Part shown: positions 804 through 21,707 of the stretch, in pieces
How positions within the stretch are numbered: the stretch's first letter is position 1
Layout of the letters: every line of letters begins with the position of its first letter
IMG/VR virus record: IMGVR_UViG_2851938318_000001
Length of the DNA: 64,000 nt
Reading direction: 5' to 3' (one strand)
Origin: a virus
Taxonomy: Duplodnaviria > Heunggongvirae > Uroviricota > Caudoviricetes
The notes under the pieces: generated by a model
What the model was told of the DNA's origin: nothing
Databases searched by the model: none
Seen by the model: only the letters and a program-made list of their open reading frames with translations
Position numbers and translations under genes: made by a program

Positions 804-1949
804 ATGAAATACATAAAACCTTCATCGTTGCTGGCATTAACTTTGCTTTTTAGCTCTGGATTCGTTAACGCAGACAATAAACAAACGCTGATAGAAGCCG
901 CTAACGCAGGTGATACCGCAGCACAAAGTGAGTTAGGGACAAATTATTTGGATGGTGTCAATGGTTTTGATAAGGATGTAGTTGAGGCCAAGAAGTGGAT
1001 TGATCTCGCTGCAGAAAAGGGAGATAAAGTAGCATATTATGCACTTGGAGTTATGTACACATTTGGCGAGGGTGTAGATAAAGACCTAAATAAAGCTGTT
1101 GAGTACTACAAACTTGCGGGGGATGCTCGTGAAGGTAGAGCCTACAACAATCTTGGTGCTATTTATCAAAAGGGGATGCTTGGTAAAGTAGATCATGCAC
1201 TCGCCATTAAATACTTCAAACTAGCCTCTGATGCCGGGTATGTTAAAGCAACTTCAGTTCTTGGGGCGTATTACCAATATGGTAAAGGCGTTCAAAAGAA
1301 TTATAAAAAGGCTTTTACTTATTACAAAAAGGCGGCAGACCAAGGCAGTTCAGAAGCTATGATAGGATTAGGAATACTATACGATGATGGGTTAGGCGTT
1401 AAACGCAATGATGCAGAAGCAGTTAAGTGGTATAAAAAGGCAGCGGAACTTGGAAACGCCGACGCCATAACCAATCTTGGCATTATGTATGAGAATGGGG
1501 AAGGAGTAAAAAAGGACTATAAAAAAGCAGCCGACCTTTATCAGACTGCTTGCAATAAAGGAGAAAAAAGAGGCTGTGAATACATTACTGAACTGAAAGA
1601 AAGCGGAAAATATCGAGTATCTGATTCCAAAGCCAAATCAAAATCAGATGTACAGCGACTTATTGCTAAATCCATTGATAAAGGCGTTAACGCAACTTTT
1701 ACCTGGCAAGGTGATGACGCCACATTCACCGCTAATGGCGGCAAAATTGACTGCACTTTCCTAAAGGATTTTTCAGAGAAAGGAGGCAATCTGGCTACCT
1801 CGTTTGTTTGCACCGATAACGTTCAAATCATCCTGAAGCAATTCAGAGATACCAAGAATGCCTACCTCGCGGTAATGACTGACAACTTCAACACAGAAGT
1901 TAAATCATTTTCGGTCAATGTTTACGTGACTAATACTGGTTCAAACTAA
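804..1949 (+). CDS. secreted Sel1-like repeat (TPR-like) protein
   Basis: 381 aa; hydrophobic N-terminal signal sequence; several tandem ~36-aa repeats with the A-x-x-W-Y-x-K-A-A-x-x-G pattern followed by G-x-x-Y-x-x-G-x-G-V. Confidence 0.7.
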   Translation: MKYIKPSSLLALTLLFSSGFVNADNKQTLIEAANAGDTAAQSELGTNYLDGVNGFDKDVVEAKKWIDLAAEKGDKVAYYALGVMYTFGEGVDKDLNKAVEYYKLAGDAREGRAYNNLGAIYQKGMLGKVDHALAIKYFKLASDAGYVKATSVLGAYYQYGKGVQKNYKKAFTYYKKAADQGSSEAMIGLGILYDDGLGVKRNDAEAVKWYKKAAELGNADAITNLGIMYENGEGVKKDYKKAADLYQTACNKGEKRGCEYITELKESGKYRVSDSKAKSKSDVQRLIAKSIDKGVNATFTWQGDDATFTANGGKIDCTFLKDFSEKGGNLATSFVCTDNVQIILKQFRDTKNAYLAVMTDNFNTEVKSFSVNVYVTNTGSN

Positions 1950-3194: not shown

Positions 3195-3203
3195 GCTTAT
3201 TTT

Positions 3204-4544: not shown

Positions 4545-4587
4545 GTGCTTTCCTTTGTTTTTTAAACAAATTGTTTTCTAGTATTAG

Positions 4588-5337
4588 TTAATTAGATAGG
4601 GGATCAATAAACCGCCGTGCTTCTTCCAGTTCTTCTGGAAAGTGGGCGGAAATAAGGCGCTCTGGAACGATTTCCATTAGCCAGATAGCGGAGAAAATTG
4701 CGCGTATGCGCTTGCTGCGAGGGATGGTGCGCAAACGCTCCAGAATCCACTCAAAATAGCTTTCCTGAATCGGGTTGAACTGCATGTCTCCCATATGCTT
4801 AAAGCTAACAAGAGAGTCATCCAGACGGGTTGTTGCGCGTCTGGCTAATTTCTCTTCAAATATCTCAATCAGTTCTGGCTGCCACAAATGCTGTGGGCGC
4901 GGCAGCTTGTCCCACAGCCGTCGTGCAGCTGCGGAAAGAACGGTGGAGATAAAGTAGTCGTATGAGCAGCAATAGCGATCCGCAAACTGGCGTGCTTTCC
5001 ATAGCGACGTTTTATTGGCAGTCGACAACTCCTGATAAGGCAGGCGTTTTAACCCGGTGGTGAACGGAGCTGTTTCAAAGTGTTCGCGACCGTGCGTCAG
5101 CATGATATTTGAGTACTGACGTTTGTATGCCTCCGTAAAAAGACAGGTGGCCATGAGAGGATGCATGTCGCGGTAATCAAACCACTTCGTCTCGAAGAGT
5201 TCAGCCTCGTCTTTACAGCGCGACAAACCAATGTTTTCAGCGACCCACTTGTCCATAACAGCGGTATTCCACTCTGTCATGAAGTCGTACTGGTCGTTGT
5301 CGATGGTATCGAAAAAGATTTGGCTCATGTGGCTCAC
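4588..5337 (-). CDS. hypothetical protein of the replication module (possible initiator or helicase loader)
   Basis: 249-aa ORF immediately upstream of and co-oriented with the helicase gene; no recognisable motif. Confidence 0.4.
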   Translation of the reverse strand: MSHMSQIFFDTIDNDQYDFMTEWNTAVMDKWVAENIGLSRCKDEAELFETKWFDYRDMHPLMATCLFTEAYKRQYSNIMLTHGREHFETAPFTTGLKRLPYQELSTANKTSLWKARQFADRYCCSYDYFISTVLSAAARRLWDKLPRPQHLWQPELIEIFEEKLARRATTRLDDSLVSFKHMGDMQFNPIQESYFEWILERLRTIPRSKRIRAIFSAIWLMEIVPERLISAHFPEELEEARRFIDPLSN

Positions 5338-5610: not shown

Positions 5611-6378
5611 ATGGACGATTTATCGGTATACGCGAGATCATTGGATAAGGCTAAATACTATGTTTACTGTCTCTATGATACAGAAGACAAGATGAAAAGA
5701 CCGTTTTACATAGGAAAAGGCAAATCGACTCGTTGTCTCGATCACATCAAGTATCCCGATGACTCTCCCAAATCCATGCGGATCAAAGAACTTTTGGCTA
5801 ATAAAAAATTAGGCATAGATATTCTTCGTCATGGTATGGATGAAACCACAGCCAAACTTGTTGAGGCGACATGCATCGACCTTATGGGGGTCGGAGAGCT
5901 TACGAATAAGGTACGAGGAAGTGGTTCCATGATGGGCAGAATATCACTGGACGCCTACCATCACTTAGTGCTGCAAGAGGAAACTGAAATTGCTCCTGAG
6001 CACGCCGGTCTTGCCTTCCTGCTAAACAGCACCTACAAGTCAGGAATGTCCGCTCTGGCATTATATGAAGCTACGCGTGGCGTATGGGCAAAGGTTCCAA
6101 GAGACGAGAATCTCAAATATGCCTACGCTACATATGGTGGGCTAATAATGGAAGTTTATCAGATTGAATGCTGGGTCAAAGCCGGTTCTCAGCAGTACTT
6201 TACAAGGGATATAGCTCTTGGCCCCGACACAAAACGTTATGAATTTGTTGGCAGAATAGCCGATGAGCATATTAGAAAACTGTATGTAGGCAAATTAATC
6301 AAGAAGCCACCAAGCTACGGTAGCCCTTTTGTGAAGGTTGGGGTGGTTAGGACTGAACATAGTGTTAGCGCGGCATAA
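5611..6378 (+). CDS. GIY-YIG domain nuclease, possible free-standing homing endonuclease
   Basis: 255 aa; N-terminus YVYCLYD...FYIGKGKSTRCLDH fits the GIY-(10-13)-YIG...R...H pattern; lone plus-strand gene between replication and partition modules. Confidence 0.55.
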   Translation: MDDLSVYARSLDKAKYYVYCLYDTEDKMKRPFYIGKGKSTRCLDHIKYPDDSPKSMRIKELLANKKLGIDILRHGMDETTAKLVEATCIDLMGVGELTNKVRGSGSMMGRISLDAYHHLVLQEETEIAPEHAGLAFLLNSTYKSGMSALALYEATRGVWAKVPRDENLKYAYATYGGLIMEVYQIECWVKAGSQQYFTRDIALGPDTKRYEFVGRIADEHIRKLYVGKLIKKPPSYGSPFVKVGVVRTEHSVSAA

Positions 6379-6430: not shown

Positions 6431-6790
6431 TTAACCTTTCTTCATCAACTCTCGTTTGATTTCATCGGTACGCATCGTGACATCGGCAGCGGTGATCGCC
6501 TCATTCAATTTCACGATGTCCTCGATTTCCTGCGGTGACTTCTCTGCCAGATGGAAAATGGCTGCTCGAATCACGTCAGAACGAGTGAACTTCTCGAAGC
6601 GAGGGATGAACTTCATCATCTCCAGCAGTTCGAAGTATTCGTCCTCCAGTGACATTGTGCGGCTTTTAATTTTCTCTTTGCCACGAGTCGGGCGTCCCTG
6701 TGGTCTGACTGGTTGGCGCAAAGGAGTTGTGTTCTTAGCCGGTGCATCAGGCTCTTTGCGCTTTGCTAGGTCACCCATTTTCATGGACAT
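6431..6790 (-). CDS. small centromere-binding partner of ParA (ribbon-helix-helix, ParG-like)
   Basis: 119 aa; basic N-terminal tail then a beta-strand/helix pattern (TMSLEDEYFELLEMM...RSDVIRAAIFHL); start overlaps the parA stop. Confidence 0.5.
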   Translation of the reverse strand: MSMKMGDLAKRKEPDAPAKNTTPLRQPVRPQGRPTRGKEKIKSRTMSLEDEYFELLEMMKFIPRFEKFTRSDVIRAAIFHLAEKSPQEIEDIVKLNEAITAADVTMRTDEIKRELMKKG

Positions 6791-7458
6791 TATTCTTCTT
6801 CCTCCAGACTCAACAGATAATCTACAAATTCTTCAAACTCGGCTTCCGCCTTTTTGTCGCGCTCGCTACCGGTCATTTCAAAGATAGAACGACCAGACTC
6901 TTCCGCATCATCATAGACGTTGCGGTTATATAGATTGACTGGCGCAGACTCGATTCCAAACGTCTCAACAATCTCTTTAGCCGCCAGAATGCGAGACACT
7001 TGTGATGGCAAAGCCGGGCACTGGTTCATGACCGCGCGGACCTTCACTTTATCGTTTACATTGCGAACATTGTCGATAATAGGATCGATGTCACGTAAAG
7101 ATTTCAAATCACGACGCTTAGGACGCAGCGGGATAATGATAACGTCAGCCATCAGCATCGCTTGTCGCTGAATTTCGGAGTCGAAGCCACCAGCATCTAC
7201 CACTACAAACTCAGCTCTACCCTGAAGCGATTTTAGGTGCTTAATGATGTCATCCTGAACGTATGCAAAAGGAATCAGCTCAAGGTCTTCGTTCTGTCGA
7301 CGGTCTTCACACCAGCTCGTTGTCGTGCGCTGAATATCTATATCGGTAATATAAACCTTCTTCTTCTTTTTGACTTTCAGGCAAACGGCAATTTGCTGGG
7401 CAACGGTGGATTTGCCAGGCCCGCCCTTTGTGCCGCCAACCACAAAGATCTTGGTCAT
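6790..7458 (-). CDS. parA: ParA-family partition ATPase (small, type Ib)
   Basis: 222 aa; deviant Walker A GGTKGGPGKST; second motif VVVDAGG. Confidence 0.8.
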   Translation of the reverse strand: MTKIFVVGGTKGGPGKSTVAQQIAVCLKVKKKKKVYITDIDIQRTTTSWCEDRRQNEDLELIPFAYVQDDIIKHLKSLQGRAEFVVVDAGGFDSEIQRQAMLMADVIIIPLRPKRRDLKSLRDIDPIIDNVRNVNDKVKVRAVMNQCPALPSQVSRILAAKEIVETFGIESAPVNLYNRNVYDDAEESGRSIFEMTGSERDKKAEAEFEEFVDYLLSLEEEE

Positions 7459-7633
7459 TGGAGAGTTCCCTTTGCGTATATAATTATCGTCTGAAACAAC
7501 TTGTTTTCTTATATGTGATATAGCCTAAATGCCTACGGCTGCGGTGTAAAGGTTAAATGGTAGGTTGTGATTAACAATTTGAACCGCCCCGGAAATCCTG
7601 GAGACTAAACTCCCTGAGAAAGAGGTAAACAGG

Positions 7634-7960
7634 ATGACTAAAAATACTCGTTTTTCCCCCGAAGTCCGTCAGCGGGCGATTCGTATGGTTCTGGAAAGTC
7701 AGGATGAATATGACTCACAGTGGGCGGCAATTTGTTCCATTGCCCCAAAGATTGGCTGTACGCCGGAGACTCTGCGTGTCTGGGTTCGCCAGCATGAGCG
7801 GGATACCGGGGGCGGTGATGGTGGGCTCACCAGCGCTGAACGTCAGCGTCTGAAAGAGCTGGAACGTGAAAATCGTGAACTGCGCCGCAGTAACGATATC
7901 CTTCGCCAGGCTTCCGCTTATTTTGCGAAGGCGGAGTTCGACCGCCTCTGGAAAAAATGA
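7634..7960 (+). CDS. IS3-family transposase OrfA (HTH)
   Basis: 108 aa; A-run at the orfA/orfB overlap consistent with -1 frameshifting. Confidence 0.85.
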
Positions 7961-8847
7961 TGCCACTGCTGGATAAGCTGCGTGAGCAGTACGGGGTCGG
8001 ACCGGTATGCAGCGAACTGCATATTGCCCCGTCAACGTATTACCATTGTCAGCAACAGCGACATCATCCGGATAAACGCAGTGCCCGTGCGCAGCACGAC
8101 GACTGGCTGAAGAGAGAGATACAGCGCGTATACGATGAAAATCATCAGGTGTACGGTGTGCGTAAAGTCTGGCGTCAGTTGTTACGGGAAGGAATCAGGG
8201 TGGCCAGATGTACAGTGGCACGTCTCATGGCGGTTATGGGACTTGCCGGTGTTCTCCGGGGTAAAAAGGTCCGTACGACCATCAGCCGGAAAGCCGTTGC
8301 CGCAGGCGACCGCGTAAACCGTCAGTTCGTGGCAGAACGACCTGACCAGCTGTGGGTGGCTGATTTTACTTACGTCAGCACATGGCAGGGCTTCGTCTAT
8401 GTGGCGTTTATCATTGATGTGTTTGCCGGATACATCGTGGGGTGGCGGGTCTCATCGTCTATGGAAACGACATTCGTGCTGGATGCGCTGGAGCAGGCGT
8501 TGTGGGCCCGTCGTCCGTCTGGCACCATCCATCACAGCGATAAAGGCTCTCAGTATGTGTCACTGGCCTATACGGAGCGACTAAAAGAAGCCGGATTACT
8601 GGCATCAACAGGGAGTACAGGCGACTCGTATGACAACGCGATGGCTGAGAGCATCAATGGTCTTTACAAAGCGGAGGTAATACACCGTAAGAGCTGGAAA
8701 AACCGTGCAGAAGTGGAACTGGCCACACTAACGTGGGTGGACTGGTATAACAATCGACGATTGCTGGGAAGGCTGGGCCATACTCCTCCGGCAGAAGCAG
8801 AAAAAGCTTATTATGCTTCCATCGGAAACGATGATCTGGCAGCCTGA
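7957..8847 (+). CDS. IS3-family transposase OrfB (DDE catalytic domain)
   Basis: 296-aa ORF in the -1 frame relative to OrfA. Confidence 0.85.
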
Positions 8848-9089
8848 GTTCACAGATAAAACACTCTCCAGGAAACCCGGGGCGGTTCAATTGGCAATCA
8901 TAGCTTGTATTTGTCTGTTGAAAAAAGTAACAATGACCTCTATATTACAAGTACGGTGATATGCCGTACACAATTTGATAATGCACACGTAATGGGCTAT
9001 AGCCTTTTAAAGTAATTTTTGAGTCGAAAACTCAGTTTGAACAGAGGAGATTGATGGCCTTCCTACATCACGGCCATCAGGAGGAATAC

Positions 9090-9359
9090 ATGTCAGCACT
9101 AAAAAAGCAGCGCATCGATTTGAGATTAACCGATGACGATAAAAGCATCATCGAGGAAGCTGCCGCAATGTCTAACCAGAGCATTACTCAGTTTATGGTT
9201 AGCAGTGCATCTGAACGTGCCGTGAAAGTTATAGAGCAACACCGTAGACTAGTTCTGAATGAAGAATCCTGGAATCTGGTTATGGACGCTATAAGCAATC
9301 CTCCGGCACCGAACGACAAGCTGAAACGAGCTGCTGATCGTCTGAAAAGCATGGAGTAG
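9090..9359 (+). CDS. DUF1778-type antitoxin (TacA-like)
   Basis: Start chosen at ATG 9090 preceded by AGGAGG; about 89 aa; immediately upstream of the GNAT toxin gene. Confidence 0.65.
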   Translation: MSALKKQRIDLRLTDDDKSIIEEAAAMSNQSITQFMVSSASERAVKVIEQHRRLVLNEESWNLVMDAISNPPAPNDKLKRAADRLKSME

Positions 9360-9366
9360 TTTACTC

Positions 9367-9888
9367 GTGAGCAATACAACGATAGAGATTTTCTCTGGAG
9401 AGAAAGATTATGATCTAAACGGTTTTGATTGCGGCGAAGAGTCACTAAACGCCTTTTTAGCCAACCACTTAAAAAGGCAGCATGAGGGAAAAATTCTTCG
9501 TGCTTATGTGCTTTGCACTCAAGAAGAAAGGCCAAAAGTGTTAGGATATTACACTTTGTCAGGTAGTTGTTTTGAAAAGGAGTCCTTACCTTCAAGAAGC
9601 AAACAAAAGAAGGTTCCTTATCGGAATGTTCCAAGTGTTACTTTGGGTAGGCTGGCTTTGGACAAGCCCCTTCAAGGTCAAGGATTTGGCTCAATGCTTG
9701 TAACACATGCAATGCGCGTTGTGTACAATGCATCTCTTGCTGTAGGCATTCATGGACTTTTCGTTGAGGCGTTAAATGACAAAGCCAAGGCGTTTTATAA
9801 AAGTTTAGGCTTTATCCAGCTGGTTGGTAACAACGAGCGTTCTTTGTTCTATCCTACAAAATCTATCGAAAAATTGTTCGAAGAATAA
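9367..9888 (+). CDS. GNAT-family acetyltransferase toxin (TacT-like)
   Basis: 173 aa; acyl-CoA-binding motif QGQGFGSMLV; GTG start 8 nt after antitoxin stop. Confidence 0.65.
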   Translation: MSNTTIEIFSGEKDYDLNGFDCGEESLNAFLANHLKRQHEGKILRAYVLCTQEERPKVLGYYTLSGSCFEKESLPSRSKQKKVPYRNVPSVTLGRLALDKPLQGQGFGSMLVTHAMRVVYNASLAVGIHGLFVEALNDKAKAFYKSLGFIQLVGNNERSLFYPTKSIEKLFEE

Positions 9889-10056
9889 TGTGTTCCCCTC
9901 ATTTGAGGGGAACTTCGACATCACCAACCACAAACCCTCTCTCCCATCGTATTGTGAAAAAGGATTTGGCGTTCGGTTTCTTCAGTCATTACATCATTAT
10001 TGCTGATATAGATAGGCTCAGCCCCATCGCAGAACAACACGCTGGCTGTTTGTGGT

Positions 10057-10308
10057 TTAATGACGCACCCACTTATCATACAACTCACGATGAACGGCAG
10101 AAGCATCTTTCTGACGTATTTTACTGCTCGTCTCATTCACCACTTTCACTGTGTTTTGAAGTCGTTTTCTGTCTTCCTGTTTTGCCTTCTCTTCCATTGC
10201 TCGTCGCGCCGCATTCCCGCCCATCGTGTAAGCGCCGACAAGAACGAAAAGAACGGCAGCCAGCGTAATCAAAGCAACTTTTAGCTTTGTCATCAGGCTG
10301 CCTAGCAT
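10057..10308 (-). CDS. spanin-like protein (N-terminal transmembrane helix + charged coiled region)
   Basis: 83 aa; TM segment LKVALITLAAVLFVLVGAY followed by KAKQEDRKRLQ-rich region; last gene of the lysis-like cassette. Confidence 0.4.
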   Translation of the reverse strand: MLGSLMTKLKVALITLAAVLFVLVGAYTMGGNAARRAMEEKAKQEDRKRLQNTVKVVNETSSKIRQKDASAVHRELYDKWVRH

Positions 10309-10309
10309 A

Positions 10310-11029
10310 TTAGACCATCCCTTTCTGGTGTTTTCTTACCTGCGACCAGGCAATGAATCCTGCCACAACAATAGTGGCAATACCGAAGATAATGCGTACT
10401 GTATCCCCGCTAGAGATATGACCTTGTGCTTTATCCATAGCAGCGGAAACCTGCGGCATAACATCGGCCAGCTGCGCCAGACCAATACCTGCTGTAACAG
10501 TTGCGCCTGCGGTTTCTTTAGTTACAGGAACAGCCTTCACGGTTTTCACCGGCTTAACAACGCCAGCTCGACGCAGACCTTCCTCAATAACTTCTGCCGC
10601 ATACCAGGTGTTCAGCGTTTTTAGCGGGCCTCGGCCATTCTCGTGGCGAATGATTGCCTCAACCAAAGGTCGAAGGATGTCGTAATCATGCAGATCGATG
10701 ATCATGTCTGCGGTTACACCAACGGCTTTAGACACCTCATTAATGTAGGCGTCAGTATTGTTTTCATTCGGCGGTGCCCAGCGTTCAATAACTTCACGAA
10801 TGGTATCGATACTTGTGCCGTCTTTTGCGCGACGTTTATCGTGGTAGGTAATTAGAGTCACCGCCAGCGCACGAATCCCCCAAACAGGGTCTTTAAACGT
10901 GCAAAAGCGCGGTTCGTCTGGATTCGCAACCAGACCTTGCCACGGTGATCCTTTATCAAGATTACCGGGGTTATTATTACGAATGCCTCTCGGAGTCTTC
11001 ATCCTTGATCTCCTGTTATTGCAGTCCAC
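10310..11029 (-). CDS. candidate endolysin or lysis-module protein with C-terminal membrane anchor
   Basis: 239 aa; conserved-looking N-terminal GIRNNNPGNL...W segment; C-terminal TM helix IIFGIATIVVAGFIAW; sits between holin-like and spanin-like genes. Confidence 0.35.
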   Translation of the reverse strand: MDCNNRRSRMKTPRGIRNNNPGNLDKGSPWQGLVANPDEPRFCTFKDPVWGIRALAVTLITYHDKRRAKDGTSIDTIREVIERWAPPNENNTDAYINEVSKAVGVTADMIIDLHDYDILRPLVEAIIRHENGRGPLKTLNTWYAAEVIEEGLRRAGVVKPVKTVKAVPVTKETAGATVTAGIGLAQLADVMPQVSAAMDKAQGHISSGDTVRIIFGIATIVVAGFIAWSQVRKHQKGMV

Positions 11030-11351
11030 TTTTTACGCCATACGCGGCTAACCCCAAAAGCAGTGCGGTAATAATGAACGACGTTATTTTAGAAACAATG
11101 CCGCCAAAGAACCCACTTGAGATGGAATCTAACCGGTTAAGGAGTTTGTCCAGATTGGAGTGTTGAATACTATGTTGCGCCGGGGTCATATCACCAAAGT
11201 AGGTTTTCAGCTGATCATTGACCTCCTGGCCAATTTCTTCACGTAGCTCTTTACCTAATTTGCCAACAACCTCCCGAGCAACGATCGCGGCAATACGCTC
11301 AACTTGCTCTGTTGTAACGCCCGCCATCTCGTTCGACATGTTTTCCTCCAT
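11016..11351 (-). CDS. holin-like small membrane protein
   Basis: 111 aa; one C-terminal TM helix ITSFIITALLLGLAAYGV; first gene of the lysis-like cassette. Confidence 0.35.
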   Translation of the reverse strand: MEENMSNEMAGVTTEQVERIAAIVAREVVGKLGKELREEIGQEVNDQLKTYFGDMTPAQHSIQHSNLDKLLNRLDSISSGFFGGIVSKITSFIITALLLGLAAYGVKSGLQ

Positions 11352-11541
11352 GAAAAGTCAAATCGGGATGGCGGATTTATATCACACTTCCCCTTTCAAT
11401 TATAGGTATATACTTACCTACCTATGCATATACCGTTTAACGGCTGTTCAAATTCGTATCTAGTAACTCACTAATATATCCCTATGATTGCGGCTGTGAG
11501 ATCGCATTTTAAACCTCACAGCCATATAAATAATGTCTAAA

Positions 11542-14500
11542 TCAGTTACTTGTTGCCCCAACAGTACCTGCAAATTTCAGCCATTGACCTGACGGACTTC
11601 TATTACTACGGTAGTGATAAACGAGGATTGCGTTTGTAATCCCACCATAGTCAGCTTTGTGTGACGTCGTTAAACGAATTGTATAATCACCGTTAGGTAG
11701 ATTAAAAACTTCGATTATAGATTCTGCTAATTCTACAGCACCAAATCCCGTTATATTGTTGATACTGCCAGCATTGAATCCCATAGCATCGCCAAAGCCA
11801 ATCCAATAACTTTTGCTAAACGCCCCATTTGATTTTAGGTGGCTAATGAATGCGGACAAGCTCATGCCCATATCCCCACCTGAAACAGAGGAAGTTCGCA
11901 CAGTCATGCTTGGAAGAGCACTGCTCTTCACATAGGAACTTAGAAGGTTTGTTACCTCTGTTTTCGTGTAAGCATTAACATTAGCCGCAGTCAAAGTTAT
12001 ATCGGCAGAGCCATCAAACGCCACACCAGCAATTTTCCTTGCTGTCTGCAATTTTGTGGCGGTTGCGGCATTACCAGTAGTGTTCTGGTTCCCATCTGCA
12101 TTCACACCTGGGATGCTGTCTTTTTTAGTATATATCTGAGTCCAGTCCTCTTCGAACCCATAGCCATCACGTGATGAACGGTAATACAATCCACCATTTT
12201 TATAATGCGCTCGGATTTGGAGAGTCCGACAACTACCTACGCCTGTATAAAAATTTGCAACGATATAAGAATCCCCGGAGCGTGTAACATTATACGCACC
12301 TGATTCGGCATTCCACGGGACCGCACCACTAGTATCGGCATAAGTTCCAGTAGCGCGTCGAGCAAAAGCAGATACATTTGCAGCTGTTAGTGTTATATCA
12401 GCAGAACCATCAAAAGACACGCCGCTTATTTTTCTAGCAGTTTGCAACTTCGTAGCTGTTGAAGCATTACCGTTCAAGCTGCCATTTACGCCACCAGTAA
12501 CATTTAGTCCATTACCAATGGACACAGCACCGCTGGTATTGTTAATTGTAATCGGTCGCAAACCGTTCCATGAACCTAATGTGTCTCCTGATGCTGTTAG
12601 CATGAAATATGTGTTCGACCCATCATTACGGATAAAGAACCCAAAGCTACCGTAAGCAATGCGGAAACCATTTGCATATTTTGAAATGATCTCGCCAGAA
12701 GATGTCAAACCTCCAGATAATGTCCCACCGGTAAGAGGTAATGCACCAACGTCAGATGCTGTTGGTTTATTTTTCGTGTTATATACTCTTCGCCATCCTG
12801 GAGAATAATCTGTGCCATTAAATACATAGATAAACTCCGCATTAGTGAGAGCACCAGAGACACTCGTCGTTGTGGCCGTTGTTATACGGATCGTATAATT
12901 GTTTGAGCTACTACCGTTATTAAATACCTCTATAACAGCTCCTGCCAATGGAATAACGCCACAACCAGTTTCACTATTTGGTATGGTTGCACTATTGGCA
13001 TAGGCCCACGCACATCGAGCAATCCATGACTTTGTGTTAAATGCTCCATTATTTTGCAATAACGTCACTAACTGTGCTGTTGTTATTGCTCCGCCATTAC
13101 TTCCTGTAGTTAACCAACCAGTAGGAGATGCCGGGCAACCTATATTTGCTGGCGATAAGGAAATATTTGCCGAGCCGTCAAACGACACCCCATTAATAGT
13201 ACGCGCAGTCTGCAACTTCGTAGCAGTAGCCGCGTTGCCCGTTGTATTCTGATTACCAGTCGTATTAACACCTGGCAAATTAATATTCGCAGTACCATCA
13301 AAGCTCACGCCGCCGATAGTTCTTGCCGTCTGAAGTTTTGTAGCAGTTGCAGCATTACCAGTGGTGTTCTGATTACCCGTAGTATTTACACCTGGAAGGT
13401 TGATATTTGCAGAACCGTCGAAACCAACTCCACCGATAGATCTTGCCGTCTGCAATTTCGTTGCTGTACTTGCATTACCATTTAATGTTCCGGTGATCCC
13501 ACCAGTAACAGACAACGGACCTGAAACTGTTCCTCCGGTTGTTGGCAGTGCACCAATATCTAACGGCGTCGGTTTCTGATGTGTGCTATACATCGTATAA
13601 ACAACACCATCGGTAACGCTGGAAGGCTTACTCGCTGAATATGTTGGCGATGTATAAATAGAAACTGTCGCATTTGCAGTACAATCCCAATGGATATTTA
13701 CACTCGTCGCATAATTGCCAATCTCAACGTAAATATCATATGTATCGCCGGATGTGTTGATCCAGGCGAAATTCGTTAATCCGACAGCTGTACGCTTCCA
13801 CAAAGCCCCGGTAATTCCTTTGGGGTTTCCATTGCCTGCTCGTAGAACCAGTTCTGAAATGCCTGCCTGATGTGGGGAACCGACGTTGTAACCAGCGCCA
13901 CCAATCAATGCGATGTAAACGATGGAACTCGCTTGTGGCATGGTAACCGTAGCCAGTTTGAACCACCCAGCCCCGCCAGAGAAAGACATCGTTACTGAAT
14001 TTAAAGTACCAATATCTTTCGGCGTTAATGTTATATCCGCAGTCAATGCTTTTCCGTTAACTTTTCGGTTAGATGGCACCCTGCTATTCGCATTGTCATT
14101 GGCTGCTTTAACTGCTTTTGGCGTTGCGGCCAGCGATTCACTGGTGCTGTCGACAGCACTGCTAAGTTTCACAACACCTTTGGTGGTAAGGCTTGCGTCT
14201 TCCATCGCAACTGCACCGGCAATCTCTTCAGCACGATCAGCGGCAGCTTCCGCACGGGTCGCAGCGGATTCAGCAGCAGTTTTGCTCTGAGATGCAGCTG
14301 TCGCACTGCCTGCCGCCTCTGTTGCCTTCGTGGATGCCGTTGAAGCACTGCTCTTCGCTGCTGATGCCTGCTTGGTCGCCTCATCTTTTGAAGCGGATGC
14401 TGAGGTGGCTGATGCAGACGCAGAACTTGCAGATTCAGCAGCTGCCGCCTTAGAGGAAGCAGCATTGTCTTCTGAGGTCTTTGCATTTGTTTCAGAGGTT

Positions 14501-15567
14501 TTTGCTGCCGATGCTGAATTTTTAGCAGCTGTAGCCTGACTCGTCGCCTCTGTCGCTTTTGTGGTAGCTGTTGTCGCGGATGACAATGCGCTATCCGCAG
14601 ATTTTCCTGCCGCTGTTGCACTTGATGAAGCACTATCCGCACTTGCTGAGGCTGCACTTGCTGACGCTTCTGCCACAGATTTCGAACTGTTTGCAGACGA
14701 TGCACTCTGTTCGGCTGCCGTTTCAGATGCTTTTGCGTTTGTCTCTGACGTTTTTGCTGCCTTAGAGGAATTTGCAGCTTCTGTTGCCGATGATGCAGCC
14801 GCGTTTGCACTCGATGAAGCGTTAGTCTCTGATGCTTTGGCTGCATCCTTAGATGCAGAGGCACTGGACGCAGATATTGCAGCCTCCGATGCTTTGGTCG
14901 ATGCTACAGACGCTGATTCTGCTGCCGCTTCTTTGGCGGCCTCTGCGTTCGTTTCAGATCTTTTCGCAGCAGTTGCACTCGCACTTGCAGCACTTTGTGA
15001 GGATGCCGCAGCGGATGCACTTTGAGACGCTTGAGATGCTTTTTCTCCAGCGGTATTGGCGCTTTCTGCCGCTGCGGCAGCACTGGCCGCCGCCTCACGA
15101 GCTTTGTCGCCAGCAGCATCAATCGCGTCAGTGTTATTTTTATACCACTCAACGTTTTCGTTGTGCTCGTTGACGATCTGCATTAGCGGCTTAACGGTCA
15201 CTTCTGTACCGTCTTCACGCTCGATTGTCACCTCATCCAGAGCAGTCAACCAACTGCGCATGGACTTTGAATCAGCCGACATACGCGACATTAGTGCAGT
15301 AAAGCGCGCGCTAAACTGTGTTAAGTCGCCTTCATAGGTCGTAATGATTCGGCACGGAACTTCAGACTGAGTTTCGCCGGTATAAGGTTCTGAGAGAACA
15401 ATGTTCGTATCACTGGTTACGCGCTTGATCTCATACAGCTTGTTGTCGGGGCCAATGACGATCATCCCCGGCAACACACCATTAGCTGTTACGTTCCAGG
15501 CTGTTCCAACACCAACGAGAGTATTGCTACCCTGTGTAAATGTGATAGTACCTTCCCTGTACCACAT
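11542..15567 (-). CDS. side tail fiber protein
   Basis: 1341 aa; long Ala/Ser-rich low-complexity region; three tandem tail-fiber repeats GNAATATKLQTARxIGGVSFDGxANINLPGVNTTGNQNTT. Confidence 0.75.
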   Translation of the reverse strand: MWYREGTITFTQGSNTLVGVGTAWNVTANGVLPGMIVIGPDNKLYEIKRVTSDTNIVLSEPYTGETQSEVPCRIITTYEGDLTQFSARFTALMSRMSADSKSMRSWLTALDEVTIEREDGTEVTVKPLMQIVNEHNENVEWYKNNTDAIDAAGDKAREAAASAAAAAESANTAGEKASQASQSASAAASSQSAASASATAAKRSETNAEAAKEAAAESASVASTKASEAAISASSASASKDAAKASETNASSSANAAASSATEAANSSKAAKTSETNAKASETAAEQSASSANSSKSVAEASASAASASADSASSSATAAGKSADSALSSATTATTKATEATSQATAAKNSASAAKTSETNAKTSEDNAASSKAAAAESASSASASATSASASKDEATKQASAAKSSASTASTKATEAAGSATAASQSKTAAESAATRAEAAADRAEEIAGAVAMEDASLTTKGVVKLSSAVDSTSESLAATPKAVKAANDNANSRVPSNRKVNGKALTADITLTPKDIGTLNSVTMSFSGGAGWFKLATVTMPQASSIVYIALIGGAGYNVGSPHQAGISELVLRAGNGNPKGITGALWKRTAVGLTNFAWINTSGDTYDIYVEIGNYATSVNIHWDCTANATVSIYTSPTYSASKPSSVTDGVVYTMYSTHQKPTPLDIGALPTTGGTVSGPLSVTGGITGTLNGNASTATKLQTARSIGGVGFDGSANINLPGVNTTGNQNTTGNAATATKLQTARTIGGVSFDGTANINLPGVNTTGNQNTTGNAATATKLQTARTINGVSFDGSANISLSPANIGCPASPTGWLTTGSNGGAITTAQLVTLLQNNGAFNTKSWIARCAWAYANSATIPNSETGCGVIPLAGAVIEVFNNGSSSNNYTIRITTATTTSVSGALTNAEFIYVFNGTDYSPGWRRVYNTKNKPTASDVGALPLTGGTLSGGLTSSGEIISKYANGFRIAYGSFGFFIRNDGSNTYFMLTASGDTLGSWNGLRPITINNTSGAVSIGNGLNVTGGVNGSLNGNASTATKLQTARKISGVSFDGSADITLTAANVSAFARRATGTYADTSGAVPWNAESGAYNVTRSGDSYIVANFYTGVGSCRTLQIRAHYKNGGLYYRSSRDGYGFEEDWTQIYTKKDSIPGVNADGNQNTTGNAATATKLQTARKIAGVAFDGSADITLTAANVNAYTKTEVTNLLSSYVKSSALPSMTVRTSSVSGGDMGMSLSAFISHLKSNGAFSKSYWIGFGDAMGFNAGSINNITGFGAVELAESIIEVFNLPNGDYTIRLTTSHKADYGGITNAILVYHYRSNRSPSGQWLKFAGTVGATSN

Positions 15568-15660
15568 GTTGAATATGCTCCTTGATTTGGTGGGCTATCC
15601 TTGCCCACCATAAAGTAAGTACCTACTTATTTTTACCGATGTAAATATTTTTTTCTACTA

Positions 15661-18600
15661 TCACAGAAGGCCAATTCTCACTCGGAGGACGTTGTTATCG
15701 TCATAAACGTCAATCCGCTGACCATTTATGACCAATCGCCCATTGCCGCCGCTATTACCGTTAATCTCAAGCGTTCCATTTTTGCCGAACCGCCATCCAG
15801 ATCTACCGCTAACAAAATTGGTAGATTGCAGATCGCCTACTTTTGCATTGGTGATTGTGCCATCCTTGATATACGCACCATTCATATAGGCGATACTGTT
15901 TTCGATAACAAATGGCGTGGTGATCTTCCCGTTAACAGAGTTGACCAAACCAAATCTGTCCGCCTGCACCAAAAACTGAGAAAGACCGGTGGTGTCGATA
16001 CCAAGCGCAATACCGGCAACATACTTCTGCCCTCCGCTCGTTGAAGTCTCCATTTTCAACGTCCACGCGGTTGAGACTTTTTTGTTGGTATCAGCAATGG
16101 CTGTTGCCTGCTGTTGAATTGTCGCGGTATTTCCATCCACCTCTGCTTTCAGAGTATCGATTCGCCCACTTAGAGCATTATCTGCCTGCGTTCTCGCTGT
16201 CGTTTCAGTTGTGACCGCCGCAGAAATGTTGGCTGCTGTTTGAGACTCTAAGTTTGTGATTTGAGTCGCCAGTGCCGCATCTTGCTCTGTACGCGTTTTC
16301 GTTTCGGTTGCTACAGCCGCTTTAATATCCTCTTTGTATTGAGAGGTCAGCTTGGTGATCTGAGATGACAACGCCGAGTCAGCATCAGTTCGAGCCTGCG
16401 TTTCAACTGCAACGGCCGCACTAATATCTTTCGCAGTCTGTGCTTTTAAACTTGAAACCTCTTTTGTTAAAGCGGTATCACCATCTGCACGAGCCGTTGT
16501 TTCTCTGGCAAGAGATGCCTCGAGATCATTAGCTTTTGCTGTAAGAGACGTAATCTGAGTGGACAATGCACTATCGGCATCAGTCCTTGCCTTTGTCTCT
16601 ACAGCAACCGCTGCGGCAATGTCAGTTCCGGTCTGCGCCCGCAGGATGTTAATTTCTCGTGAGAGCGCCTCGTCAGCACTTGCTCTAGCCTCCTGCTCCT
16701 GAGTGATGGCGGCGGATATATCACCGTCAACCTTTGCTTGAAGCTGGTTTATTTGTTTGGCTAAGGCAGAGTCCCCGCTTGCTCGAGCCTCCTGCTCACT
16801 ACGTATTGCAGCAGAAATATCATCATCAACCTTTGCCTGAAGTTGGGTGATCTGGCTTGCCAGAGCCGAATCTTCCGTTGCTCGGGCTTCTTGCTCCTCC
16901 TTAATAGCTGCGACGATATCGTTGCTTACTTTCGACTCAAGCTGAGTGATCTGTGTCGTCAGAGCTTCATCGGCAGATGTACGAGCCTCCTGCTCTGTAC
17001 TAATCGCCGCGCTGATATCTCCTTCAAACTTAGATTGCAGCTGAGTGACACGCTTTGCCAACGCTTCATCGCCATCGGCACGAGCGGTGGACTCTTCCAG
17101 AATACTGGCCTTAATGTCTTCGCCAATTTCTACGCGAATTTCCTCAACCTTCGTGGCCATTGCAGACATATCATCAGCAAAGGTTTTCTGTGTTGTTGCG
17201 ATCTTCGCGTTATTGACCATCTGCTTGTGCTGGTCTTCATCTTGACGAAGAGCCAGGTCAATGTTTGTTTTGGCCAACGCCTCAATGTTCGTAGTCAGCT
17301 CTGCACTTGCACGATCGACCTCTGCAACCGTCTTTTTCATTTCTTCAACGGCAGCGGAGCTTTCCTCTACCGTTGACTGCAACACTTCCAGTTGTTTAGC
17401 GTTTGCAGCATCGCCTTCAACACGAGCCTCGCTTTCCTTAGCAATAAGAGCCGCCGCTTCATCTCTTGCAGCCTTTATTGCCTCGACTGTATTAGCGAGA
17501 GCTTTATCGTGTTCAGATACGGCGTTTTCGATTTCAACAATTGCAGCATCAGTAGCATCAATTTTTTCAAACGCTTCATTGACCTTGTCGATCGTTGCCG
17601 AAACCTCACCTTTAAGCTCGGTTTGTGCGTTCTCCAAAGCATCGCTACGCTCGTTGAATTTTATTTCAAAATCCGCGAGGTTATCGCTGAACTGCTTATC
17701 TAATTCAGCTATATCTTCCTTAACGTCGTTTACCGCCCCCTCCAAAGATTCGACGCTCTGGTTGATATGCTCATTTAACTCGTCAACTGCTTCTTGAGAG
17801 GCTTTGCTGTTGATGTCCTCAAGCAGAGCCTGACCAAGCTCGGAAGATGTAATTTTGCCAGTCAGGAACGACAGTACATCGCGAGTTGTCGCCTCTGTAC
17901 CCAAGTTTGAGTTCGGAGGACTTAACATACCTCGCTTGTTCGATGCTCGAACCCAGTAATACCACGTTTCACTATCCCCAAGACCAGCATGTGTAAAGGT
18001 GGTGCTTGCAGACTCTGCGATCAGTTTCGCCGTATCCAGATTGTTGGTCTGGGATGCGTAAACATTAATGTGATCAAGGTCTACCGAATCTGGATTAACC
18101 CAATTCAGTATCACATTACGATAGTCTCCAACGGCCGTTAATGACGTTGGTGCATCCGGCGGTGTCATTGTGCCCAGCACCTGATAAACGGTACTGATAA
18201 TTTCTGTTTTTTTACCGTTGAATGAAACCGCATACAGTTGGAAGTCGTAGCGTCCATTCTCCGCGACATTAACGATTTCGTATTGCTCTTCGGTTACACG
18301 CGCCGATTGCCAGTTCGATACATTGTTTTCATCAGAACGTCGCCAACTGATCCAATACTCTGGAGATTTCCCTTCCCATGTTGCAGTCAGTTTTACTGAC
18401 AGGTTGCCCGGGCTTGAGAGATAAGTCCCTTCAGTGATTTGCAGATTAGATGGCTTGGAGTAAGTTGGGTCCAATACCGTCGTATTCTGCGGGATCAGCG
18501 TTGCACCATTGTCGATTGCCTCATATTTAGACGGATTGTTCTCAACAGCGGTGATGTCAAAGCTACCCGGCGTTTCCCCCTGCGCGATGTTAACGATGCG

Positions 18601-19530
18601 AACGCGCATAGGTTCGAGGTCTGGTTCTGTAATAGTCCAGACGCCGTTCAAAACAGGCGTTTCAGCCGAAGACAGGGCTTTTGAAAACGTAACTTTTGTT
18701 ATATTTTCGCCAGTTTCAAGAACATCGCGTTCAACGATTTTGCCTTCCTGATTCAGTATTCGAATAAAGCAGCCGCCTTTGGCTAACGACACAGGCGCAT
18801 CGAGTGTGACGCTGTTTTTGGTAAACGCCACAATTCGACCTGAGTTACGTTTGCCTGCGCGATATTTGTTCTGAATCAGAACGGTTTCACCAGGCATCAG
18901 AAATGACGCGTCTAAGCCGGCAGTAAATGTAATTACATCCGACTCCATTCTGGAGGTATATAAAAGCCACAAACCAACTCGGTGAGCCTGCCCTCGGCTT
19001 GTACAGCCAAATGCTACGACTTCTGTTTTACGCTCACCATAACGGCGCATTGCGTCCTGATCTTCGACGTACTCGATGTTTTGCTTATAACCGTCCTCCT
19101 TGTTGTTGTAGGTTACGAGCGCAACGGATGGGCGATCTTTACGCGCAGAACCTTTATAGGTAAACAATCCATCTTTGACGTTAGAGTTGGTAAACATCAT
19201 TACCGGATCTGATGGGCTATCCTGCATGATGTTAACCATCCCACCAGCCCAAAACACCATGCCGCGGAATGCTCCGGCAATATCCTGAATTAGCCGGTAT
19301 GCGTCCTGTCGACTGGTGATCTGCGTATTGATTGCAAAGCGTTTCTCTTTGCCACCAAAGCCATCATCGACCTCTTCGTCACAATATCGACCAATCTGGT
19401 ACAACTGGCCAAGGTCAATCATAGATTCCGACACATACTGACCAAGGCCATATCGAGCATTGGTCAGCAAATCAAAGAGAATCCACGCGGGGTTCGAAGA
19501 AGACAACAGCTTAAAAGTGCCATCCCATAC
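15661..19530 (-). pseudogene. host-specificity (tail tip) protein J, C-terminal fragment, cut by IS insertion
   Basis: Reading frame stays open up to the IS boundary at 19530 and reads V-WDGTFKLLSSSNPAWILFDLL, contiguous with the lambda J-like N-terminal fragment; central coiled-coil repeats (ISAAI/EQEARA). Confidence 0.8.
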
Positions 19531-19572
19531 TGAACCGCCCCGGGTTTCCTGGAGAGTGTTTTATCTGTGAAC

Positions 19573-20463
19573 TCAGGCTGCCAGATCATCGTTTCCGATG
19601 GAAGCATAATAAGCTTTTTCTGCTTCTGCCGGAGGAGTATGGCCCAGCCTTCCCAGCAATCGTCGATTGTTATACCAGTCCACCCACGTTAGTGTGGCCA
19701 GTTCCACTTCTGCACGGTTTTTCCAGCTCTTACGGTGTATTACCTCCGCTTTGTAAAGACCATTGATGCTCTCAGCCATCGCGTTGTCATACGAGTCGCC
19801 TGTACTCCCTGTTGATGCCAGTAATCCGGCTTCTTTTAGTCGCTCCGTATAGGCCAGTGACACATACTGAGAGCCTTTATCGCTGTGATGGATGGTGCCA
19901 GACGGACGACGGGCCCACAACGCCTGCTCCAGCGCATCCAGCACGAATGTCGTTTCCATAGACGATGAGACCCGCCACCCCACGATGTATCCGGCAAACA
20001 CATCAATGATAAACGCCACATAGACGAAGCCCTGCCATGTGCTGACGTAAGTAAAATCAGCCACCCACAGCTGGTCAGGTCGTTCTGCCACGAACTGACG
20101 GTTTACGCGGTCGCCTGCGGCAACGGCTTTCCGGCTGATGGTCGTACGGACCTTTTTACCCCGGAGAACACCGGCAAGTCCCATAACCGCCATGAGACGT
20201 GCCACTGTACATCTGGCCACCCTGATTCCTTCCCGTAACAACTGACGCCAGACTTTACGCACACCGTACACCTGATGATTTTCATCGTATACGCGCTGTA
20301 TCTCTCTCTTCAGCCAGTCGTCGTGCTGCGCACGGGCACTGCGTTTATCCGGATGATGTCGCTGTTGCTGACAATGGTAATACGTTGACGGGGCAATATG
20401 CAGTTCGCTGCATACCGGTCCGACCCCGTACTGCTCACGCAGCTTATCCAGCAGTGGCATCAT
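19573..20463 (-). CDS. IS3-family transposase OrfB
   Basis: 296-aa ORF identical to the copy-1 OrfB. Confidence 0.85.
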
Positions 20464-20786
20464 TTTTTCCAGAGGCGGTCGAACTCCGCCTTCGCAAAAT
20501 AAGCGGAAGCCTGGCGAAGGATATCGTTACTGCGGCGCAGTTCACGATTTTCACGTTCCAGCTCTTTCAGACGCTGACGTTCAGCGCTGGTGAGCCCACC
20601 ATCACCGCCCCCGGTATCCCGCTCATGCTGGCGAACCCAGACACGCAGAGTCTCCGGCGTACAGCCAATCTTTGGGGCAATGGAACAAATTGCCGCCCAC
20701 TGTGAGTCATATTCATCCTGACTTTCCAGAACCATACGAATCGCCCGCTGACGGACTTCGGGGGAAAAACGAGTATTTTTAGTCAT
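20460..20786 (-). CDS. IS3-family transposase OrfA
   Basis: 108-aa ORF identical to the copy-1 OrfA. Confidence 0.85.
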
Positions 20787-20840
20787 CCTGTTTACCTCTT
20801 TCTCAGGGAGTTTAGTCTCCAGGATTTCCGGGGCGGTTCA

Positions 20841-21707
20841 TACCCCAGCGTAAGTGTTACTGGACTCGTTATAGTTTGAAGGTACTCGAATTTTTAGGCC
20901 ACGCACCAGATAAGAGCGAGATGGCATGGTGCTACCGAATTGCTCAGAGTTTACCTTCAATCCAACCAAAACAGAGTTTGGATAGTTCATCGGTGTATCG
21001 ACAATTTCCCCGATTGAATCCACCCATGTATCGTTATAGAGATACTGGCTACTGTTATCATCGGTAATACGGACTACACGAACCTTGTATGCGCGTCCAG
21101 GCTTAGGCAGCTTCAGCTCGTAGCTACGGTAATAAACGCCGGTCTTCTTTGCTGTTAGCTTAATGCCAACGCTTTTTTCACCTTCCGCGACCACATCTAC
21201 AAATGTTGAGTCGCCATTTGCTATCTGGAACTTGTACTCAACAGTCGTACCGTTCGTGTCACCAGTTTTTTTATCTATGCTTCGCAAAGAAGGAAACTTC
21301 ATGATGACACGAACCCGATCAGCTTCATCGTTATCGATTGAAACCGTTACATAATGTGTTTTTTTTAACTGGATATTGACGGATTTAGGCGTTTCAACGA
21401 AATCAAAGCCAGACATTGGAGTCTGGTCTTGTGAACCGTCGCGAAAATCCCATGTGATTCCGCTGAAGTTGGAGGAACCGTCTTCATTTACAATCGGCAG
21501 ATCGTCGATAAAAATAGATCTTGCGCCATTTACTAAGCCGCCAATTACCCCTTCCCCAAGAAGATCGAGGATAGCGGCCATTGCACGAGAATTTACGGTA
21601 TCGTCGGCTTCAACCGGTGTACGGCTGGAGCTTTTGCTGCTTTTTTTACCACCCGCACCGGCAATAAACAGCGGTAGCTTTTTCTTCTTGAACTGTTCCA
21701 TGTTCAA
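20841..21707 (-). pseudogene. host-specificity protein J, N-terminal fragment
   Basis: 289 codons ending ...VPSNYNESSNTYAGV exactly at the IS boundary; the stop codon is supplied by the IS end (TGA of TGAACC). Confidence 0.8.

Follow-up and report, generated by a model that had tools for sequence, protein, structure and literature searches.

Two IS629/IS1203 copies in the SSU5/Cyrano-like phage-plasmid pRM9131-1, one of which splits the tail-tip gene J

Abstract

Two identical, inverted copies of IS629/IS1203 in the phage-plasmid pRM9131-1 very probably derive from two separate insertions, one of them probably near-neutral (copy 1) and the other splitting the tail-tip gene J (copy 2), as part of the ordinary decay of an SSU5/Cyrano-like phage-plasmid. 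The stretch analysed, hereafter the window, comprises 64,000 nucleotides of plasmid pRM9131-1 (NZ_CP028430.1) from a bovine E. coli isolate. Each IS copy retains its own target-site duplication, and IS-free relatives provide the empty sites. Inactivation of J by copy 2 is the main predicted functional consequence of the pair.

Results

Identity of the plasmid and its relatives

On its synteny and sequence similarity to SSU5 and Cyrano, present across repA, parA and the siphovirus structural genes, pRM9131-1 is an SSU5/Cyrano-like phage-plasmid. It shares IncFIB-type repA, parA and the parA partner gene with the group of Salmonella phage SSU5, the E. coli LF82 phage-plasmid Cyrano/pLF82 and pHCM2, and the order of lysis cassette, tail fibre, J-I-K-L-M tail genes and tape measure is common to SSU5-like phage-plasmids. 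The segment is 96-98% identical to Cyrano-type plasmids, and Cyrano makes virions (PMC9928086). Unlike its SSU5-like relatives, pRM9131-1 features six IS629 copies and one IS91, splits in J, in a 5'-3' exonuclease, in an SbcC-like ATPase and in nrdA (the last carrying the IS91), one inversion and one 3.6-kb deletion. An IS has also inserted into dnaE, ~10 nt from its 5' end. IS elements are likewise found in tail genes of related SSU5-like plasmids from E. coli. Literature searches found nothing on RM9131, or on IS629 in connection with both inversion and target-site duplication.

Anatomy of the insertion sequences and their target sites

Copies 1 and 2 are the only IS629 copies within the window (Table 1). 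The repeat finder returned arms of 1310 nt, 100% complementary and 10,641 nt apart, and string comparison gave an exact reverse complement; a perfect repeat of 1310 bp is far beyond chance. The element falls within the ~1.2-1.5 kb of the IS3 family and has the 5'-TG...CA-3' ends of that family, with terminal inverted repeats of 25 bp (TGAACCGCCCCGG..., 88% matched). Its orfA and orfB overlap, as in the -1 frameshift arrangement of IS3-family members, and carry the label 'programmed frameshift' in RefSeq. Over 1310 bp, both copies are 100% identical to IS1203-annotated elements of O157:H7 and other STEC genomes, while the matching copies in Stx-phage records, labelled IS629, are ~99.8-99.9% identical; the IS629/IS1203 assignment rests on these annotated genome and phage copies. 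The element itself is the same as in O157:H7 and other STEC, and only the two insertion sites are new.

At the empty sites, pMB3825A_2 and phage Cyrano have ATT and TAC once each, with no other difference across either junction, which agrees with the 3-4 bp target duplications of the IS3 family. The pre-insertion state, whose reconstruction from IS-free relatives had been proposed in an earlier note on this DNA, could be rebuilt at the exact sites. Repeat finder, string comparison and flank reads all bear out that note's description of two identical inverted copies, each with its own matching duplication. IS629 is known to transpose by a copy-out-paste-in mechanism, with a circular intermediate and 3-bp duplications (PMC9943667; bioRxiv 10.1101/2023.06.07.543989).

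Table 1. Features in and around the IS pair, in window coordinates.
Feature	Position	Strand	Details
ParA partner ORF	6431-6790		119 aa; downstream of parA
parA	6790..7458	-	222 aa; MipZ, AAA_31, CbiA; PHROG ParA-like 4.2e-51
Conserved parA control block	7459..7565	-	ATG to -107; wholly retained beside parA
Dispersed palindrome AAACAAnTTGTTT	7494-7506		inside parA control block; over-represented in window
Target-site duplication ATT, copy 1	left 7577-7579, right 8890-8892		flanks AACAATT-IS-ATTGGC
IS629/IS1203 copy 1 (IS3 family)	7580..8889	+	repeat finder, Pfam, Rfam, RefSeq annotation
Copy 1 IRL	7580-7604
Copy 1 orfA	7634-7960	+	HTH_Tnp_1
Copy 1 ALIL frameshift pseudoknot	7915-8031		Rfam, 121.5 bits
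Copy 1 orfB	7957-8847	+	DDE transposase; rve, 9.3e-28
Copy 1 IRR	8865-8889
Candidate toxin-antitoxin promoter TTGAAA-17-TATATT	8918-8946	+	10/12 consensus; putative function
Palindrome GTACGG-N7-CCGTAC	8951-8969	+	after candidate toxin-antitoxin promoter
TacA-like antitoxin	9090-9359	+	TacA1, 5.7e-26
GNAT acetyltransferase toxin	9367-9888	+	GNAT families ~1e-7; KacT annotation in Cyrano
Lysis cassette	9921..11351	-	PHROGs and Cyrano annotation
Rz1-like	9921-10136	-	overlaps Rz
Rz	10057-10308	-	Rz-like spanin PHROGs on Rz/Rz1, 7e-25 and 1.3e-24
Endolysin	10310-11002	-	PHROG 3.4e-88
Holin-position gene	11016-11351	-
Side tail fibre gene	11542..15567	-	1341 aa; Gp34_trimer domain
J 3' fragment	15661..19530	-	~1289 codons, without native start codon; Phage-tail_3 and Phage_Tail_Tip domains
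Target-site duplication TAC, copy 2	left 19528-19530, right 20841-20843		flanks CCCATAC-IS-TACCCC
IS629/IS1203 copy 2	19531..20840	-	inverted relative to copy 1; IRR end 19531, IRL end 20840
J 5' fragment	20841..21701	-	~287 codons; FNIII-A_GpJ domain; RefSeq pseudogene gpJ, missing C-terminus

Copy 2 and the tail-tip gene J

Copy 2 interrupts J after codon 286 (codon 286/287) with the IS in sense orientation, and the reading of the 5' fragment ends ...YAGV at the TGA that closes the IS (20840-20838). Removal of copy 2 yields an intact J of 1575 aa that matches its Cyrano counterpart at 99.4% identity. In lambda-like siphoviruses, J forms the tail tip and serves in tail assembly; therefore infectious virions should no longer form and, by analogy with those phages, the split has probably stopped their production by pRM9131-1.

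Inactivation of J by copy 2 received too little weight in the earlier note.

Copy 1 and the region upstream of parA

The parA product, with the N-terminus MTKIFVVGGTKGGPGKST and the deviant Walker A motif GGTKGGPGKST, has the features of a small, type Ib-like Walker ATPase. Its 119-aa neighbour downstream has no Pfam match and belongs to a PHROG of unknown function. Upstream of parA no centromere was identified, but there is a conserved 107-nt block, near-identical in SSU5, pM160133_p3, pSCU-306-2 and pMB3825A_2, with homology stopping at ACCTAY. Its conservation spans three upstream contexts, that of SSU5 and two others from E. coli; in two of the three, a terminator-like hairpin and T-run, as read by eye, come before the block. 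Since conservation extends to -107 and the hairpin lies beyond in these two contexts, the parA promoter/operator should lie inside the block.

Copy 1 lies in the 318 bp that separate the parA operon from the divergently oriented tacA-like/GNAT toxin-antitoxin operon, 14 nt from the distal edge of the block, where a variable cargo slot adjoins. The 122 bp previously reported between copy 1 and parA fits the position of the parA ATG at 7458 (-), with 121 nt between. Because copy 1 is 14 nt beyond the conserved block, parA regulation is probably intact, and the disturbance of parA regulation or of a centromere-like site that had been suggested is unsupported. The candidate toxin-antitoxin promoter on the other side is intact and begins 29 nt from the IRR end of copy 1. 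Lying just outside the parA block and at this distance from the promoter, copy 1 therefore probably has next to no effect on the maintenance of the plasmid.

Contents of the bracketed segment

Profile searches and the Cyrano annotation recovered in the 10.6-kb segment the contents previously listed for it, namely a toxin-antitoxin pair, lysis genes, a tail fibre and the 3' part of J. The antitoxin (TacA/DUF1778) lies directly upstream of the GNAT toxin with a gap of 7 nt, and from this TacAT/KacAT-type order the two genes are predicted to form a pair. The GNAT toxin has an S101P substitution, in line with the ~0.7% background divergence of that block.

Rearrangements within and beyond the pair

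The segment and both its flanks are collinear on one strand with pMB3825A_2 (whole-plasmid synteny). With this collinearity and with each copy keeping its own duplication, no inversion has occurred between copies 1 and 2 since insertion, as the earlier note had argued; what is absent is a net inversion, as an even number of inversions would leave no trace. The structure of pRM9131-1 is based on one assembly.

Rearrangement is evident elsewhere on the plasmid. Copies C and F, an inverted pair outside the window, have swapped duplications (ACT/AAC versus AGT/GTT), and the arc that they bound is inverted relative to pMB3825A_2. The breakpoints share the 3-bp sites 13797-13799 and 110236-110238 of pMB3825A_2, the halves of an SbcC-like pseudogene adjoin copies C and F respectively, and the LF82 gene order supports the arrangement of pMB3825A_2 as ancestral. 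Copy A, also outside the window, abuts the 3.6-kb deletion, where LF82 positions 1379-5021 are missing, while copy B has the 3-bp duplication TTC. Since inverted copies C and F of the same plasmid did invert, it is reasonable to regard the segment between copies 1 and 2 as poised for inversion. Deletion between these copies, proposed alongside, is not supported, because homologous recombination between inverted repeats leads to inversion and not to deletion.

The complete E. coli genomes (5,426) were searched with each IS and its 500-bp flanks as queries. The source record alone matched and the next-best coverage, 57-58%, equals the IS alone; within this set, neither insertion occurs outside pRM9131-1. 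Neither inverted isomers nor sister plasmids were found among them, and IS-flank junctions outside the source record were absent both from this set and from PLSDB.

Discussion

Alternative explanations

Disruption of the par locus by copy 1, through the loss of a promoter/operator or a centromere-like site and with stability now resting on the toxin-antitoxin modules, is unlikely. It draws on the short distance to parA (121 nt), on an insertion point midway through an imperfect 20-bp palindrome (TGATTAACAATTGGCAATCA), and on a weak sigma-70-like match (TTGCCA-16-TACCAT, 9/12), present only in the IS-free allele, which copy 1 splits; moreover, the centromeres of type Ib par loci are often upstream of parA. 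However, conservation ends at -107 with, in two contexts, the hairpin and T-run beyond it, which places the promoter probably inside the block, and the other upstream contexts lack both the palindrome and the -35 element that copy 1 splits. Promoter-like matches occur in near-chance numbers (4 found against 1.7 expected), and the isolate maintains the plasmid. Copy 1 would not be neutral if the split match or the palindrome were a real clade-specific parA or centromere element. The promoter scan yielded weak matches throughout; the 9/12 match was given little weight as a promoter candidate, its -35 not being conserved in the other contexts.

The pair and its segment could also be read as a composite transposon, inserted or mobile as a unit and mobilising the toxin-antitoxin, lysis and tail-fibre genes, given that two identical IS flank a cargo which includes an addiction module and that composite transposons with inverted IS copies exist (Tn5, Tn10). 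The geometry is indeed alike, with identical inverted IS arms around a cargo, but in pRM9131-1 the two IS inserted independently, the cargo belongs to the site and the copy-out-paste-in chemistry differs. Instead of one outer duplication shared around foreign cargo, ATT borders the pair on one outer side and TAC on the other, with a separate duplication for each IS, and the cargo keeps its ancestral position and orientation, collinear with IS-free relatives. No record of PLSDB or of the 5,426 E. coli genomes besides the source contains even one of the IS-flank junctions, and the IS-cargo-IS unit was not encountered at other locations in these collections. Furthermore, both outer ends of the unit are IRL, whereas the circle junction of IS3-family elements (IS911, IS3) usually joins IRR to IRL. 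A composite origin, rejected on the separate duplications and the synteny, is extremely improbable, and there is no evidence for the mobilisation of the segment that the earlier note had envisaged. As for an assembly artefact, a 117-kb replicon with six identical 1.3-kb repeats could be hard to assemble, with copies left misplaced or collapsed, but all four junctions fit the empty sites to the base, with proper 3-bp duplications. Copy B, and copies C and F after the flank swap, fit as well, and misassembly would not yield consistent duplications; the probability of such an artefact is close to negligible.

Decay of a phage-plasmid

Under the preferred reading of two separate insertions, both copies would presumably have been supplied by the strain's own IS629 pool. 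Copy 1 entered the spacer between parA and the toxin-antitoxin genes, outside the parA control block, and copy 2 entered J in sense, leaving an N-terminal fragment that ends at the IS TGA. A virion-defective pRM9131-1 would then persist as a plasmid by means of repA, parA and the toxin-antitoxin modules. Copies 1 and 2 are part of a six-copy load which has already given rise to one inversion (C/F) and one deletion (copy A).

A more elaborate reading, in which the IS in J acts as a reversible virion off-switch and copies 1 and 2 delimit a 10.6-kb segment invertible at low frequency, is very unlikely. If it held, precise excision of the IS, which IEE could promote in STEC hosts, for instance, would bring back an intact Cyrano-like J, and pRM9131-1 would be locked in the plasmid state until excision, while inversion of the segment could uncouple the tail-fibre and lysis genes from late transcription.

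Pfeifer and Rocha reported in 2024 that phage-plasmids often carry transposases, whose integration may disable genes, and that a phage-plasmid becomes a plasmid when its phage functions are lost (PMC10879196). Compared with the IS-mediated decay described there, pRM9131-1 is at an early stage, with a single clean insertion in J, reversible by precise excision.

Conclusions

The decay of pRM9131-1 is ordinary mobile-element decay of an already known kind; it involves no new system and opens no new mechanism or question. Its value lies mainly in annotation, with the window representing a decaying SSU5-like phage-plasmid from bovine E. coli, in which the lesion that matters functionally is the predicted inactivation of J and not the insertion upstream of parA. 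pRM9131-1 also provides a base-resolved case of IS629 insertion, inversion and deletion in one replicon, and damage by IS629 is a route by which phage-plasmids may turn into plain plasmids.

Two independent IS629/IS1203 insertions

The plasmid pRM9131-1 (NZ_CP028430.1; 117,123 bp, IncFIB), of which the window is the reverse strand, is carried by E. coli RM9131 from cattle faeces (Salinas, California) and, judged from its sequence, is an SSU5-like phage-plasmid. Identity to the window region is 96-98% in phage Cyrano (pLF82) and in numerous 107-114-kb plasmids from E. coli and E. albertii, as against ~82% in Salmonella phage SSU5. Both pRM9131-1 and its relative pMB3825A_2 carry metG and apbC.

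The repeat finder returned a single inverted pair, whose arms of 1310 nt each are 100% complementary and enclose 10,641 nt, with the genes from the TacA-like antitoxin to the J 3' part (see table); by direct string comparison the copies are exact reverse complements, and a search of the window for a third found none. The flanks read ...AACAATT-IS-ATTGGC... at copy 1 and ...CCCATAC-IS-TACCCC... at copy 2, so that 3 bp, ATT and TAC respectively, are directly duplicated. In the position of the copies, in their duplications and in the 121 nt between copy 1 and the parA start, the earlier note is confirmed. Each copy has imperfect terminal inverted repeats of 25 bp starting TGAACC (repeat finder), and is 100% identical to elements that carry the annotation "IS3-like element IS1203 family" in genomes of O157:H7 and other STEC; identity to the IS629-annotated copies of Stx-phage records is ~99.8-99.9%. 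Of 5,426 complete E. coli genomes, 4,252 have the element. IS629, the commonest IS in O157, is known to inactivate genes and to generate deletions, and is excised with the help of IEE (PMC9943667); IEE-responsive elements transpose by copy-out-paste-in via a circular intermediate (bioRxiv 10.1101/2023.06.07.543989).

Features of the window and IS629 copies of pRM9131-1 (strands of copies A-F refer to the record)
Feature	Window	NZ_CP028430.1	Strand	Remarks
LEM-3-like GIY-YIG protein gene	5611-6378		+	adjoins par operon
parA ATG	7458		-	
parA control block	7459-7565			
orfA	7634-7960			transposase HTH domain
orfB	7957-8847			overlaps orfA; rve/DDE domain, Pfam 9.3e-28
ALIL frameshift pseudoknot	7915-8031			full length; Rfam 121.5 bits, gathering score 50
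Toxin-antitoxin promoter match	8918-8946			TTGAAA-17-TATATT
TacA-like antitoxin, GNAT toxin	9090-9888		+	
Rz1-like and Rz spanins, endolysin, holin-position gene	9921-11351		-	
Tail fibre	11542-15567		-	1341 aa
J 3' part	15661-19530		-	
J 5' fragment	21701-20841			
AAACAAnTTGTTT sites	4564, 7494, 39278, 39303, 50019, 51689, 52173, 53335, 54949, 55000			13 nt each
Copy A		1349-2658	+	flanks AAG, CTA; no matching duplication
Copy B		3996-5305	+	flanks TTC, TTC; matching duplication
Copy C		12664-13973	-	flanks AGT, GTT; no matching duplication
Copy D (window copy 2)	19531-20840	77707-79016	+	flanks GTA, GTA; matching duplication
Copy E (window copy 1)	7580-8889	89658-90967	-	flanks AAT, AAT; matching duplication
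Copy F		111615-112924	+	flanks ACT, AAC; no matching duplication

The pre-insertion sites, which the earlier note had proposed to seek in IS-free relatives, were recovered in pMB3825A_2 and Cyrano. These have one ATT and one TAC at the two sites and match the window over both junctions save for one substitution ~95 nt from junction 2, which identifies the copies as simple, independent insertions. Among the 5,426 complete genomes, only the source record carries the IS with its 500-bp flanks, none of the others covering more than 58%, and in PLSDB 100% coverage was reached by the source record alone; both insertions are private to pRM9131-1.

Rearrangement by IS629

In whole-plasmid BLAST, the bracketed segment and both flanks are collinear with pMB3825A_2 on one strand, the blocks overlapping by a few bases per insertion site as expected from target duplication and chance extension. 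An odd number of inversions between copies 1 and 2 is thereby excluded, in line with the earlier reading of the matched duplications. Arrival of the pair as a composite transposon was rejected, the outer flanks (ATT and TAC) being unlike and the cargo native to its site. Of the inversion, deletion and mobilisation for which the segment had been considered poised, inversion is reasonable, having a precedent in the same plasmid, but deletion is not expected between inverted copies and no mobilisation is evident; both outer ends are IRL. Deletions could instead arise between copies in direct orientation (D with A, B or F; E with C), events that would divide the circle in two and probably cost the plasmid its par or replication functions.

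The precedent lies among the six identical IS629 copies of pRM9131-1. The flanks of copy F are the reverse complements of those of copy C, with the 3-bp duplications swapped. Synteny with pMB3825A_2 shows that the repA-containing arc, which runs from 112925 across the origin to 12663, has been turned round with respect to the remainder of the plasmid, with copies C and F as its breakpoints. Positions 13797-13799 and 110236-110238 of pMB3825A_2 are each common to two pRM9131-1 junctions. The LF82 plasmid, with the order dnaE-AAA-CobT and an intact SbcC-like gene, supports the pMB3825A_2 arrangement as ancestral; in pRM9131-1 the halves of an SbcC-like ATPase pseudogene adjoin copies C and F. 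An inversion between two IS629 copies has thus been completed and has split the ATPase gene; copy C is now bounded by an ancestral insertion site that falls within dnaE, ~10 nt from its 5' end. Copy A, next to repA, replaces 3.6 kb (LF82 positions 1379-5021, including an SPFH-domain gene) and has non-matching flanks, as is typical where an IS has been associated with deletion of the adjoining DNA. A 5'-3' exonuclease gene is interrupted by copy B, and nrdA by an IS91-family element (NZ_CP028430.1 17041-18867).

Copy 1 and the parA control block

Copy 1 sits in the 318-bp spacer between the divergent parA and toxin-antitoxin operon, and had been suspected of disturbing parA regulation or a centromere-like site. 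The parA upstream region was aligned across four contexts, pMB3825A_2 (with the toxin-antitoxin neighbour), SSU5, pM160133_p3 and pSCU-306-2, which are near-identical from the ATG to -107, end at ACCTAYCAT and share no homology beyond. In contexts with a co-directional upstream gene, a hairpin and then a T-run, terminator-like when read by eye, precede this block; if transcription does end there, parA must have its promoter and operator within the block. Copy 1 lies 14 nt past the distal edge, where the region meets a variable cargo slot, and the best toxin-antitoxin promoter match and an adjoining palindrome, GTACGG-N7-CCGTAC, are intact. With the conserved block kept, copy 1 outside it and the promoter match preserved, disturbance of parA appears unlikely, and the conservation analysis lends the earlier suspicion no support. 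As caveats, copy 1 splits a weak 9/12 sigma-70-like match (TTGCCA-16-TACCAT) and has entered the middle of an imperfect palindrome of 20 bp, TGATTAACAATTGGCAATCA (equivalent to window 7569-7588). Both features are peculiar to the clade that bears the toxin-antitoxin module, and the palindrome occurs only in relatives that have this module upstream of parA.

The block is nearly 100% conserved between the E. coli plasmids and SSU5, although the whole region is only ~82% identical, and holds two CATTTA-centred direct repeats, TACCATTTAACC and TAGGCATTTAGGC, which could be partition-protein sites. It also contains the 13-nt palindrome AAACAAnTTGTTT (7494-7506); counted by strand, the window has 16 matches to it, spread over 10 loci, where chance would give 0.27. 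Most loci have an ATAAT-like hexamer and AGAA before the motif and an ATG ~12-40 nt downstream, an arrangement that resembles a common promoter-operator module on which a phage-plasmid regulator would act. At the position of the LEM-3-like gene, Cyrano and pSCU-306-2 have other genes, which marks another variable cargo slot.

Within the segment, the GNAT toxin (9367-9888) differs from the common allele by S101P (codon 9667-9669), a residue just ahead of the QGQGFG acetyl-CoA loop; the amount of change is in line with background divergence. Diverged internal direct repeats occur in the J 3' part (99-nt units, 64-72% identical, 16672-17067) and the tail-fibre gene (120-nt and 67-nt units, 11998-13401 and 14470-14788), and probably represent repeated structural domains.

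Disruption of J and phage-plasmid decay

RefSeq flags gpJ as a pseudogene missing its C-terminus. The J 5' fragment reads into the IS and stops at the terminal TGA of the element itself; once the IS and one TAC are taken out, the ORF again spans 1575 aa, is free of other lesions and is 99.4% identical to J of Cyrano, a reported virion producer (PMC9928086), and 99.5% to that of pMB3825A_2. The lesion is recent and in principle reversible by precise excision. Copy 2 is in sense orientation relative to the late operon and may have polar effects on the downstream tail-fibre and lysis genes.

Nothing is new in the IS, the plasmid family or the kinds of IS-mediated change, and the IS copies and J pseudogene are annotated in the pRM9131-1 record; what is added is limited to the reconstruction at base level, the mapping of the limits of the parA control block, and the finding that copies C and F mark an inversion and copy A a deletion. 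The tail tip of lambda-like siphoviruses is built from J-type proteins, which also bear the host specificity. With J split, we infer that pRM9131-1 would no longer make infectious particles. Related SSU5-like plasmids of E. coli likewise have IS elements in tail-fibre, J or tape-measure genes. Phage-plasmids are reported to carry transposases frequently and to turn into plasmids when phage genes are lost (PMC10879196).
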